64,000 bases of DNA from positions 1-64,000 of the IMG/VR virus record IMGVR_UViG_3300042396_000691; one strand, 5' to 3'. Position numbers and translations under genes: made by a program. Below are positions 12,606-15,384 of the stretch, piece after piece; within the stretch, counting starts at the first letter, position 1, and every line of letters starts with the position of its first letter. The notes beneath the pieces were generated by a model that ran no database searches, was not told where the DNA came from, and worked only from the letters and a program-made list of their open reading frames with translations. The stretch comes from a virus (Duplodnaviria > Caudoviricetes).

Positions 12606-13352
12606 ATGTTTAACGAAGATGATTTACATAAGTGGAAAAGCTCAAAACCATTTAATCATTTAGTAATAGACAATTTTTTAGAAAGCTCATTGGCTATGCA
12701 AATAGCTGATGAGTTTCCTTCTATTAATGATGACTTTTGGTTTTACTATAACAATGCTGTTGAAGTTAAAAAAGCCTGTGATATGTGGTGTAAGTTTCCA
12801 AAATCAATATATAAAACAATATTTGAATTAACCAGCAAAGAATTTGTAGACTCTTTATCTAATTTAGTTGGTAAACAGGTTTGGGCAGACTATGGGTTAA
12901 ATGGCGGTGGCATACACGCTATGGGCAATTCTGGAAAATTAAACCCACATTTAGACTACAACATACACCCAAAGCTTGGACTACAAAGAAAGATAAATTT
13001 AATAATATACTTAACAAAAGATTGGGATACATCTTGGGGTGGAGCTATAGAGTTATGGTCACACGATGAAGAAAACAATAAACCAAAACAGATAGATGTT
13101 AAAATAGATTGTGTTTTTAATAGGGCATTACTATTTGATACAACTCAAAACTCTTGGCATGGCATATCAGATCAGATCACATGTCCAATCGACAAATCAA
13201 GAAATTCAATAGCAATATACTATGTTTGTGAGCCAGAAATTGGCAGCGAAAATAGGAATAAAGCTTTGTTTGCCCCAACAGAGAACCAAAAGGGAGATAA
13301 GGCAGTTGAAGAACTTATAAGACAAAGACTTTTGGGTAAATACAAAATATAG
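12606..13352 (+). CDS. 2OG-Fe(II) oxygenase (prolyl-hydroxylase-like)
   Basis: HxD (HLD), RKINLIIYL, GGAIELW, distal His (SWHG) and RxS (RNS) 2OG-binding motif. Confidence 0.9.
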   Translation: MFNEDDLHKWKSSKPFNHLVIDNFLESSLAMQIADEFPSINDDFWFYYNNAVEVKKACDMWCKFPKSIYKTIFELTSKEFVDSLSNLVGKQVWADYGLNGGGIHAMGNSGKLNPHLDYNIHPKLGLQRKINLIIYLTKDWDTSWGGAIELWSHDEENNKPKQIDVKIDCVFNRALLFDTTQNSWHGISDQITCPIDKSRNSIAIYYVCEPEIGSENRNKALFAPTENQKGDKAVEELIRQRLLGKYKI

Positions 13353-13419: not shown

Positions 13420-13821
13420 ATGGAATCAAAAGCACCAATCGAAATCAATGGGGAAAAATATCTGCTGTTTGCAAGCGAAAATGTTAAAAGGCTTTTAAGA
13501 AAGAATAAGGTTGCAGCAGTAACTATTCTTGAAGAGTTCATTAATAAACCATTTACAAAGCTTGGAACATCTAATATTAAGAGAATTGCAGAAACAAACT
13601 TAAACATCTTGAACATTCAAGCAACAGAGTTTGAATCTCAAGAAGAAATCAAATGCTTTATCTTGCATTGTGTTGGTAACTATACGCAAATGTTGCCAAT
13701 ATATCCAAAGAAGTGGTCAGTAATGTTGGAATGTGGACATAAAGCAATATTTGATGAAACAGTTGATTATATCTGTAAAGATCATGTAGTCACATGTTTT
13801 AAGTGCAATAAAAATAATTAA
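13420..13821 (+). CDS. Hypothetical protein with C-terminal Zn-ribbon
   Basis: LECGH...CFKC, RBS AGGAGG. Confidence 0.55.
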   Translation: MESKAPIEINGEKYLLFASENVKRLLRKNKVAAVTILEEFINKPFTKLGTSNIKRIAETNLNILNIQATEFESQEEIKCFILHCVGNYTQMLPIYPKKWSVMLECGHKAIFDETVDYICKDHVVTCFKCNKNN

Positions 13822-13870: not shown

Positions 13871-14773
13871 TTGATGTTAAAGGTATATGATATGTTTTCG
13901 GGGATAGGTGGATTTGCTCTAGGATTTCAAAAGGAAGGCTTTGAAATAGCTGCTTTTGCAGAGTTAGATAAGTATCCTTCTGAAGTTTTGGCTAAGAATT
14001 TTCCAAATGTCCCCAACTATGGAGATGTAACAAAAGTAGAGTATGAAAAAGATCAATTCGATTTAATTGTTGGGGGTTTTCCCTGCACAGATATATCTAT
14101 AGCAAGTCAATCAAAGGAGGGCATTTATGGAAAAAGATCATTCTTGTGGAAAGAATTCTTCCGAGCAGTTAGAGATGTTCAACCAAAATACTGTGTCATT
14201 GAAAATGTCTTTATGCTGCTTGGAAGAGGGCTTGAAACGGTGCTACAAGACCTTGCCAGCATCGGGTACGATGCGACTTATACAACGCTCGATGCCCAAT
14301 ACTGTGGAACAGCCCAACGAAGGCGTAGAGTTTACATTTTGGGAGTCCGTGATGGAATCCCCGCCAATAGCGATATATTCGAGTTTGGCCCTCGTAGTAC
14401 TAGAACCTGTCAACAAAGCGTGGAACTTGTCAAAAAAAGCTTTGAATGGAATTTTAAAGAGAGCATGTGGTTCAAAGAAACCTTTGCCTACTTTACTCGC
14501 CAAAGAAGTGATCAATTTGATGAATGCGGAGTCTCGTCAACCTTAACAAAAAGAGATTATAAGTCTTTTACAGATTTAGTAGTCTCTGATGGTAATATAC
14601 GCAGAGTAACGCCTACAGAAAGGCTTCGCCTTATGGGTTTTCATGACCATTGGCATATCCAAGATGCTTCTAATACAGATAAGTATAAATACAATGGTAT
14701 GCATGTGCCTTCGGTTCAATATATAGCAAAATGTTTAAAGGAGTACGAAAGATGTTTGAATTTGCAAAAATAG
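13871..14773 (+). CDS. C5 DNA cytosine methyltransferase (large chain), atypical motif X
   Basis: Motif I FSGIGG, IV GGFPC, VI ENV, VIII QRRRR, IX RRVTPTERLRLMGF. Motif X reads YKYNGMHVP instead of the usual YKQxGN[SA]V. Confidence 0.92.
   Translation: MMLKVYDMFSGIGGFALGFQKEGFEIAAFAELDKYPSEVLAKNFPNVPNYGDVTKVEYEKDQFDLIVGGFPCTDISIASQSKEGIYGKRSFLWKEFFRAVRDVQPKYCVIENVFMLLGRGLETVLQDLASIGYDATYTTLDAQYCGTAQRRRRVYILGVRDGIPANSDIFEFGPRSTRTCQQSVELVKKSFEWNFKESMWFKETFAYFTRQRSDQFDECGVSSTLTKRDYKSFTDLVVSDGNIRRVTPTERLRLMGFHDHWHIQDASNTDKYKYNGMHVPSVQYIAKCLKEYERCLNLQK
14127..14546 (+). CDS. Nested out-of-frame gene, resembling the M.EcoHK31I beta subunit
   Basis: Own RBS AAAGGAGG (14113-14120) 6 nt before ATG. 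A 139-aa open frame in AT-rich DNA with motifs SLKMS, LPASGTM, SSLALVVLE and LSKKALNGILKRA..KKPLP. Confidence 0.75.
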   Translation: MEKDHSCGKNSSEQLEMFNQNTVSLKMSLCCLEEGLKRCYKTLPASGTMRLIQRSMPNTVEQPNEGVEFTFWESVMESPPIAIYSSLALVVLEPVNKAWNLSKKALNGILKRACGSKKPLPTLLAKEVINLMNAESRQP

Positions 14774-15384
14774 CAGAAAAGTTTGATGAGCACTTGTCTG
14801 GACAACTATATTGGCACAGCAATTTCGTTAATCATTTCTTGCCTGAGATTGCATCTGTTTTTATGGCAGAAGGAACAAATGTATATGATTTTGGTGCATC
14901 AACAGGTAATGTAGAGGTGGCTTTATCAAGTATGATTAAGTCAAGGGGCATAGATTTTATACCTGTGGAAAAATGTAAAGAGATGGCAGAAAGATATAAA
15001 GGCGAAAGCGAAGTGGTTGTTGATGATTTTTTAAATGTGTATATGGAAGAGTTTTCATTTGCCACATGTATTTTGTCTTTATGCTTTATCCATCCATCAA
15101 AAAGAGAAACATTTATTGATTCTTTAAAAAACAATTGTATGATTGGCGGTGCTTTTGTAGTTTTAGAGAAAATGAAATCTAAAGGAGGATATCTAGGCAC
15201 AGCACTAAATAGAGTTACATGGCGTAATAAGATTGAAAATGGTGAATCTTTAAAAATGGTAATCAATAAAGAGCTTTCGTTAAGTGGTGTGCAGTATCCT
15301 CTAAGTGAAAAAGAACTTGAAGGATTTGAGTTAATATGGGCGTATGGTGATTTTCGTGCTTATATTTGGTTAAAGGAGTTTTAA
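14752..15384 (+). CDS. CmoA-like class I SAM-dependent enzyme (carboxy-SAM synthase fold)
   Basis: FEF..AEKFDEH..., NVYDFGASTG, LSLCF, GGAFVVLEK and KIENG...NKELSLSGVQYP follow the CmoA layout. RBS AAGGAG precedes ATG 14752, which overlaps the end of the MTase gene. Confidence 0.75.
   Translation: MFEFAKIAEKFDEHLSGQLYWHSNFVNHFLPEIASVFMAEGTNVYDFGASTGNVEVALSSMIKSRGIDFIPVEKCKEMAERYKGESEVVVDDFLNVYMEEFSFATCILSLCFIHPSKRETFIDSLKNNCMIGGAFVVLEKMKSKGGYLGTALNRVTWRNKIENGESLKMVINKELSLSGVQYPLSEKELEGFELIWAYGDFRAYIWLKEF

Follow-up and report, generated by a model that had tools for sequence, protein, structure and literature searches.

The stretch of Caudoviricetes DNA analyzed here (positions 1 to 64,000 of IMG/VR record IMGVR_UViG_3300042396_000691; the window, 64,000 nucleotides [nt] long) carries a gene for a DNA cytosine-5 methyltransferase (C5-MTase, or MTase), and wholly inside that gene, out of frame on the same strand, lies a second open reading frame (ORF) at 14127-14546. 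Judged by its conservation among relatives, this nested ORF is a genuine conserved overlapping gene. Its translation probably begins inside the MTase mRNA, at an ATG served by an internal Shine-Dalgarno (SD) element, and we consider it likely that the product is a separately translated accessory subunit of the MTase, the trans form of a domain that is fused to the enzyme in other members of the family. The C-terminal core of the nested product, which corresponds to that domain, is named module M here. An earlier note, made from the letters of the window, had pointed to a 139-codon out-of-frame ORF wholly inside the MTase with a ribosome-binding site at a spacing of 6 nt, and the coordinates it gave are exact in the ORF list. 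The elements concerned are the following:

13871..14773, + strand: host C5-MTase ORF, 300 codons from TTG 13871, 300 amino acids (aa)
14113..14120, + strand: SD-like element AAAGGAGG, with 6 nt (gcattt) between it and ATG 14127
14127..14546, + strand: nested ORF, +1 frame relative to the MTase, ATG start, 139 codons plus TAA

The nested ORF lies in a stop-free +1 run of 147 codons (14103-14543), bounded by an upstream TAG (14100-14102) and the terminal TAA (14544-14546). Its ATG arises from Tyr86 (TAT)-Gly87 of the MTase and its stop from Leu225 (TTA)-Thr226, directly 5' of the TKRDYK motif, and AAAGGAGG reads as Lys-Glu-Gly codons in the MTase frame. The G+C content is 31% for the window, 39% for the MTase gene, and 43% for the nested stretch. 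A 90-codon antisense ORF (14243-14515, - strand) also falls inside the doubly coding stretch and probably results only from the constraint on both sense frames.

The nested frame is kept open throughout the family

Searches by blastn and tblastn against 50,697 cultured-phage records led to four Vibrio phage records, the only ones in which tblastn with the nested protein found matches. Scans of IMG/VR gave 21 close loci and then 11 more distant full-length loci (L105-L115, 46-69% identity). With identical sequences collapsed and one partial gene (L022) left out, the family set comprised 22 unique full-length sequences, which range from 46 to 94% in MTase identity to the window and from 36 to 61% in G+C. 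The scans also returned 136 C5-MTase loci from bacterial and archaeal metagenome-assembled genomes, isolates, and viral contigs that can be aligned to the window enzyme at residues 1 to ~157 only; these outer loci are treated separately below.

The earlier note had held such an ORF to be unlikely by chance, and the numbers bear it out. When synonymous codons were shuffled within the window MTase (5000 shuffles), the longest +1 run averaged 62 codons and reached at least 147 codons in 0.04% of the shuffles, and a run of at least that length appeared in any of the five alternative frames in 0.6%. This last figure is indecisive by itself because there are ~70 genes per window, and it is conservation in relatives that settles the matter. 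Each of the 22 unique full-length relatives keeps a stop-free +1 frame across the corresponding region, with runs of 147 codons in the window clade, L017, and L105, 143 codons in L109, 146-182 codons in L110-L115, and 119-121 codons in three Vibrio phages. The earlier note had also proposed examining whether both frames are kept in homologs, and in these 22 relatives they are.

Avoidance of stops is also marked when measured against a null built from each gene's own protein and codon usage. At MTase residues 101-157, 96.0 +1 stops would be expected across 34 family loci and none is seen; as controls in the same loci, the N-terminal segment has 216 +1 stops vs 140.0 expected, and the +2 frame over residues 101-157 has 122 vs 108.7. 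The probability of finding no +1 stop over residues 101-224 ranges, lineage by lineage, from 4e-5 to 2e-3 in the 11 representatives below 50% G+C, and the one or two "stops" tallied in six representatives fall at differing ORF ends or alignment gaps. The avoidance can be followed in codon choice, as a +1 stop can form only when TA or TG closes a codon for Leu, Ile, Val, or Met and the next base is A or G: codons of the form xTA or xTG are used freely outside the ORF, but inside it solely where the next base cannot complete a stop. Alignment column 125 shows a correlated switch of this kind, with TTA before C in four sequences and CTC before A in seven.

Purifying selection on the second frame and conservation of its start

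Reduced synonymous change is confined to the overlap, and the comparisons of aligned sequences indicate that the +1 frame is under purifying selection. All 12 pairs compared by the Nei-Gojobori method have a proportion of synonymous differences (pS) in the MTase frame that is reduced 2-5 fold within the nested ORF relative to the rest of the gene, as in the window paired with L004 (WIN-L004; 0.11 vs 0.52), L011 (0.20 vs 0.48), and L017 (0.42 vs 0.64) and in the Vibrio pair L001-L002 (0.44 vs 0.92); across all measures, the synonymous drop inside the ORF is 2-8 fold. Nonsynonymous divergence (dN) is about equal inside and outside the ORF in most of the pairs. A sliding measure places the synonymous troughs at MTase residues 122-141 and 162-215, which correspond to nested residues ~37-56 and 77-130; the deepest trough lies over the core of module M (0.08-0.18 vs 0.45-0.54 in the flanks), and the signal comes back up at the nested stop. 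Changes that affect the +1 protein and leave the MTase sequence as it is (pSN), counted in five close pairs, occur at 0.050 per site in module M vs 0.29-0.40 in the flanks, and within the module they are rarer than changes that alter the MTase while sparing the +1 protein (pNS, 0.086). When 12 representatives are compared pairwise, the mean identity over MTase residues 162-205 is 0.43 in the +1 frame and only 0.35 in frame 0, whereas in the flanks it is 0.24-0.25 for +1 vs 0.55-0.56 for frame 0.

The start of the nested ORF is conserved as well, with an ATG and a purine-rich, SD-like stretch a few nt upstream in all 10 family representatives compared. The nested ATG of L110 and L112 is immediately preceded by TAA, which argues for initiation at that ATG. 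In the Vibrio phages L001-L003, the +1 frame is closed 13 codons further on, by a stop at alignment column 99, and the nested ORF starts 15-20 codons later than in the window, which suggests that the first 15-20 nested residues are dispensable.

The host enzyme and the parts of the nested protein

The host ORF matches PF00145 of Pfam at E 2e-53 over profile positions 2-320 of 324, TIGR00675 of NCBIfam at E 4.9e-48, and phrog_116 of PHROGs. The start given in the ORF list is TTG 13871, but ATG 13874 has AAGGAGG upstream at normal spacing and agrees with the MLKVYDMF start of some relatives, and it appears to be the more likely start of the MTase. The translation and the invariant columns of the alignment place the following elements on the MTase:

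Residues 9-14: motif I, FSGIGG
Residues 69-72: motif IV, GFPC
Residues 111-113: motif VI, ENV
Residues 149-153: motif VIII, QRRRR
Residues 224-225: TL dipeptide
Residues 244-257: motif IX, RRVTPTERLRLMGF
Residues 275-281: motif X, NGMHVPS

A single frame thus holds the catalytic motifs, the TL/RDYK element, and motifs IX and X, and as the profile is also covered nearly in full, the host gene is by its sequence features a complete C5-MTase. That motif IX stays in the large chain had been recognized in the earlier note, and it implies that the nested chain must supply something else. The nested protein itself can be divided as follows, with confidence given as the predicted local distance difference test (pLDDT):

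14127..14243, + strand: nested residues 1-39; pLDDT below 50 for residues 1-40, mild synonymous dip only
14244..14279, + strand: nested residues 40-51, the "WPxSGM" element KTLPASGTMRLI; first synonymous trough, +1 identity 0.58
14355..14519, + strand: nested residues 77-131, the core of module M SPPIAIYSSLALVVLEPVNKAWNLSKKALNGILKRACGSKKPLPTLLAKEVINL; short helix plus two confident helices

Residues 1-39 are a weakly constrained head that is predicted to be disordered and is missing from the Vibrio-phage versions. The "WPxSGM" element is the +1 reading of the conserved LAxIGYDA strand of the MTase, and the C-terminal half of the nested product follows the module M pattern SSLxxVLxxxxxxxNLSxKAxxGILRRAxxxxxPLPxLLxxAL.

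The earlier note had expected gene callers to overlook the nested ORF, which fits the absence of a nested coding sequence from all three annotated GenBank phage records examined; four 139-aa proteins of the nested type have been called on short ENA contigs, one of them of the same length but only 42% identical. A phmmer search of 1.84 billion representatives returned 17 proteins at E <= 0.001, which by sequence reading look like called nested ORFs or frame fusions and among which there was no independent named family. The nearest clusters in the ESM Atlas are viral "hypothetical proteins" with scores of 0.94-0.95 and a recognition value under the usual mark, and they serve as a lead only.

Several proteins join the +1 sequence to other segments. 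In P0006 (213 aa), the MTase N-terminus (PF00145, residues 1-95) is joined to +1 sequence, and in P0011, +1 sequence runs on into the C-terminal part of frame 0, which has RDYK and motifs IX and X; these two may be sequencing frameshifts or real intermediates between architectures. P0012, P0013, and P0015-P0018 (174-320 aa) have a module-M-like C-terminal end and upstream "VFDxxQVTS...GDPCHPL" segments. P0018 runs into a match to a sodium:dicarboxylate symporter (PF00375), which indicates that at least some of these six are mis-called or chimeric ORFs.

Module M is a C-terminal domain in single-chain relatives

Profile comparison indicates that some single-chain C5-MTases have a homolog of the module M core as a C-terminal domain in their own frame. 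Aligned with hhalign, the nested family of the window (alignment A2, 18 rows) matches the in-frame extension (A3) at 96.8% (E 2.9e-10, 79 columns) and the nested products of the L045 type (A4) at 98.5% (E 2.5e-15), and the L045 type matches the in-frame extension at 99.65% (E 4.3e-25). By BLASTP, the window ORF is 37% identical to residues 353-411 of L089 (E 3e-4). The MTases of L045 and L102 are 53% identical over 297 aa, and the nested product of the former shares 47% identity with C-terminal residues 328-402 of the latter (E 8e-22).

Among these sister enzymes, module M occurs either as a nested chain or as a covalent tail, never as both. It is nested in the +1 frame of complete MTases of 317-413 aa at five loci (L045, L053, L073, L078, and L057) and fused in frame after motif X in MTases of 407-418 aa at six (L089, L096, L098, and L102-L104). 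In the six fused loci, the +1 runs measure 11-97 codons, and 12 +1 stops are found vs 18.6 expected. By the Rosetta-stone argument, this mutual exclusion suggests that the nested product works with the MTase. A search with the module of L102 (residues 300-407) returned 42 clusters of proteins of 238-517 aa, all 42 of which contain PF00145, and Pfam and NCBIfam searches of the fused proteins named the MTase part only, leaving the module without a family. Five of the 42 are single-chain clusters (P0047-P0051; 495-517 aa) with an N-terminal helix-turn-helix domain, PF13443.

Structure models

Modeled alone, the nested protein has helices at residues 103-115 and 122-137 with a pLDDT of ~86. A fused-form model (P0020, 32-row alignment) reaches a pLDDT of 83.7 and a predicted template modeling score (pTM) of 0.86, and the module in it consists of two strands (a hairpin), a short helix, and two helices at a pLDDT of 82-92. 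Compared with solved structures, the fused-form model matched C5-MTases at Z 15-18 among the matches listed, with HhaI best (Z 17.9, residues 1 to ~302). Of the 50 entries listed in this fold search, 49 stop by residue ~311 and one reaches 356, so that the search does not inform on the fold of the module, and we do not take its outcome as evidence of a new one.

The complex modeling that the earlier note had suggested was run with alignments of the window MTase (A5, 11 rows) and of its nested partner (A2, 18 rows), and it predicts that the two bind. The interface score ipSAE was 0.86, 0.87, and 0.88, compared with 0.00 for the best of three controls; the partner has a pLDDT of 72-73, and the runs share at least 85% of contacts. 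In the model, nested residues 40-51 lie against MTase residues 132-141, and nested residues 74-131 lie against MTase residues 162-190, 205-222, and 233-254; the contacts with the lowest error are between MTase residues 134-137 and nested residues 47-50. This complex model supports binding of the nested product to the MTase.

The +1 frame in the outer loci

Depletion of +1 stops extends to the 136 outer loci, which have 22 at residues 101-157 vs 270.0 expected, with observed-to-expected ratios of 0.81 in the N-terminal segment and 0.97 in the +2 frame; their median +1 run is 214 codons. This depletion suggests that a two-chain arrangement is common. In most outer loci, frame 0 holds motifs I-VIII, a junk-like linker, and motif X, and the +1 ORF holds a shadow of motifs IV-VIII, "PTPTARDYK", motif IX ("EWLMGFPxGWT"), and a stop, so that a target-recognition-domain (TRD)-like element seems to be on the small chain. 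By our own crude motif patterns, this arrangement, of the type described for M.EcoHK31I and compared below, is present in 81 of the 136 and probably in another 19. Examples among L025-L171 are L164:192-1100, L131:562-1800, and L123:1501-2450. A third arrangement was seen in five loci (L141:983-2100, L139, L040, L034, and L050), in which motifs IX and X are in frame 0 and "WPTPTARDYK" repeats are in the +1 frame, with frame 0 there resembling low-complexity filler; the repeats look like the real target-recognition part.

Discussion

In the arrangement that we favor, ribosomes starting at about 13874 would make the 299/300-aa enzyme from the MTase mRNA, and those starting at the internal SD element and ATG (14113-14129) would make the 139-aa chain. 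The "WPxSGM" strand of this chain (nested residues 40-51) would dock against MTase strand 132-141, with module M folding around the enzyme's small (target-recognition) domain near residues 162-254, and the nested chain would complete or stabilize the small domain of an otherwise complete, short-TRD MTase. The enzyme may also need the nested product for its activity, specificity, or stability. The nested product is most simply regarded as the trans form of the fused domain because relatives have the module in cis and have lost the nested frame. The earlier note had proposed that the nested chain supplies a target-recognition or structural part; of this reading, a conserved nested gene is borne out, and its product probably acts with the MTase as a second chain, whereas the role itself is a prediction.

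Several points weigh against an accessory subunit. Translation of the nested product is predicted from sequence alone, and the frame-0 MTase, complete by its motif content, may be active without a partner. The SD-like stretch, whose conservation the earlier note had proposed to check and which is present with the ATG in all 10 representatives, is weaker in L105 and L114 (AAAGAAAGG) and is partly fixed by the need of the MTase frame for Lys, Glu, and Gly codons. The nested protein matches no family in Pfam, NCBIfam, or PHROGs, and none of these libraries names the module; the in-frame extension alignment A3 has four rows only, and the A2-A4 similarity is partly a shadow of homologous MTase frames. 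The ratio of changes that alter both proteins to those that alter only the MTase (NN/NS) is noisy in control regions, 0.30 upstream and 1.08 downstream, and because of this variation pSN was relied on. The nested protein modeled alone has a mean pLDDT of 59.9 and a pTM of 0.30, with 59 of its 139 residues below 50. As for the complex, 58 of 80 solved complexes, but also 2 of 110 mismatched pairs, reach the ipSAE mark, a calibration that holds only roughly here since the complex alignments were self-made. Both chains also share nucleotides, which makes trivial covariation in these alignments possible; the best contacts are antiparallel and mostly between residues without shared codons, and the caveat about covariation still applies.

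Three other explanations have to be weighed. We think it unlikely that the nested ORF encodes a protein acting independently of the MTase, such as a regulator or a host-interaction or anti-defense factor, for which the gene is coding space only. Overprinted viral proteins are reported to be often accessory and partly disordered (PMC8227390, PMC6195259), the head of the nested protein is predicted to be disordered, and no family annotation links the module to a function; however, the module is fused to the C-terminus of sister MTases, with PF00145 in every one of the 42 clusters, its nested and fused forms exclude each other across 11 loci (5 nested, 6 fused), and the complex model passes its controls. 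It is highly improbable, in our estimate, that the +1 frame is reached by ribosomal frameshifting to yield an isoform in which the MTase N-terminus (motifs I-IV) is followed by the nested sequence. P0006 has exactly such an architecture, although it is possibly a sequencing frameshift, and an A-run (GGAAAAAGA) lies just 3' of the nested ATG in the window, but this run is not conserved (it is missing in L105, for example). Against frameshifting also stand the closure of the +1 frame 8 codons 5' of the ATG in the window and directly before it in L110 and L112, the retention of the ATG and SD-like stretch in all 10 representatives, and the Vibrio phages, which close the frame later and then restart.

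That there is no second protein, the open frame and the low synonymous rate being by-products of MTase amino-acid content, local composition, recombination, or an RNA or DNA constraint, or the ORF being a decaying relic of an ancestor of the EcoHK31I type, also strikes us as quite improbable. The higher G+C of the nested stretch (43% vs 39% for the gene) and the general depletion of +1 stops in the same segment of related MTases could be read in this way, but the nulls use each gene's own protein and codon usage, the +2 frame is as expected, and the fused-module sisters have near-normal +1 stops in that segment (12 vs 18.6). In WIN-L004, dN and synonymous divergence (dS) are both lower inside the ORF, as recent recombination would give, whereas other pairs have equal dN with a dS that is 2-3 fold lower. 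The +1 amino acids are moreover better conserved than those of frame 0 in the core, the constraint is present within the shallow window clade too, and in other enzymes a homolog of the +1 product is read in frame as a domain.

As to the origin of the accessory subunit, a tentative scenario, which we rate at somewhat below even chances, is that module M was born de novo by overprinting, became a functional trans-acting subunit, and in some lineages was later freed when its DNA was duplicated and joined in frame downstream of motif X, the nested copy then decaying; most MTases of the clade would then be two-chain enzymes. Read in +1, the universal C5-MTase strand "LAxLGYGVxW" gives "WPxSGMxWxG" (in the frames of L053 and L073), and fused copies retain a "WPxSGM"-type element, such as "WPKSGLMWDG" in L102. 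Overprinting first, followed by duplication and fusion, is the likelier order because an existing domain cannot slip into the alternative frame of conserved motifs. A search for MTase-like remnants of such a duplication in the -1 frame of the fused module gave only a weak match (E 1.5), which is expected anyway from the shared +1 sequence. If the scenario is true, module M would be one of the few protein domains whose origin in an alternative frame, and later establishment as a conventional domain, can be traced, and the nested and fused sister MTases would show how a domain can arise in this way. It would also mean that at least 81 of the 136 sampled relatives are two-chain enzymes whose second chain is missing from annotation and destroyed by codon optimization. 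In a synthetic version of such an MTase that is codon-optimized or "silently" recoded, the second chain would be lost, which could explain inactive or altered recombinant enzymes.

Gene neighborhood

The next gene (14731-15384, + strand; 217 aa) overlaps the 3' end of the C5-MTase gene by 43 nt, in another frame, and its product matches phrog_4752, "tRNA methyltransferase", at E 4e-32, with weak Pfam matches to S-adenosylmethionine-dependent methyltransferases. Upstream are a 2-oxoglutarate-Fe(II) oxygenase (12606-13352, + strand; PF13640, E 4.8e-16) and a 133-aa Cys-rich protein (13420-13821, + strand) without a family match in Pfam or PHROGs. Together, the oxygenase, the Cys-rich protein, and the two methyltransferases look like a nucleic-acid modification cluster.

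Comparison with known methyltransferases

A literature search found no nested gene of this kind in a cytosine MTase, with REBASE, supplements, and most subscription journals beyond its reach. In M.EcoHK31I (E. coli HK31, YGGCCR), as two reports describe it (PMC2836561, PMC3404938), the beta chain is encoded wholly inside the alpha gene in another frame and has motif IX, and alpha has motifs I-VIII and X without IX. As in M.EcoHK31I, the nested ORF of the window lies in the +1 frame, begins after motif IV, and spans motifs VI-VIII, and the small chain is encoded wholly inside the large-chain gene at an offset of +1. Unlike M.EcoHK31I by its published description, the large chain of the window has motifs IX and X and the TL/RDYK element, and the nested chain has module M; the defining feature of a motif IX on the small chain is absent, as RRVTPTERLRLMGF is read in frame 0 and the nested product has no such motif. 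The heterodimer of the EcoHK31I type that the earlier note had envisaged therefore holds in its nested layout and differs in its content, the role of the second chain being predicted. The complex model, in which nested residues 40-51 dock on the MTase, fits the published role of the N-terminal part of EcoHK31I beta, which is reported to matter for association rather than catalysis (PMC2836561).

EcoHK31I-type outer loci such as L164, L131, and L123 share with the window the nested frame, its position, the "WPxSGM" element derived from the LGY strand, and the depletion of stops, that element being the only one common to the nested product of the window and the EcoHK31I-type nested ORFs of other loci. 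They differ in that the RDYK element and motif IX are in the +1 frame there and in frame 0 in the window. The published EcoHK31I "curiosity" may be the rule in the C5-MTase clade of the outer loci.

M.AquI is a C5-MTase of two polypeptides split between motifs VIII and IX (PMC3404938); two polypeptides are predicted here as well, but the AquI chains are not nested, and neither is a complete MTase. The single-chain C5-MTases (among them P0031, named "DNA cytosine methyltransferase [Adlercreutzia sp.]" by NCBI, and L089, L096, L098, and L102) belong to the same enzyme family and have a homologous module, which in them follows motif X in frame within one chain of 407-517 aa, the nested frame being closed; in the window, unlike these, the module is on a 139-aa chain of its own, for which the codons of the MTase serve a second time. 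The system of the window is best filed as an EcoHK31I layout without motif IX on the small chain, that is, a complete phage C5-MTase with a predicted nested accessory subunit. As a same-strand overlapping gene in a bacterial virus, it would extend the single textbook case of M.EcoHK31I to a complete MTase with a nested accessory module.

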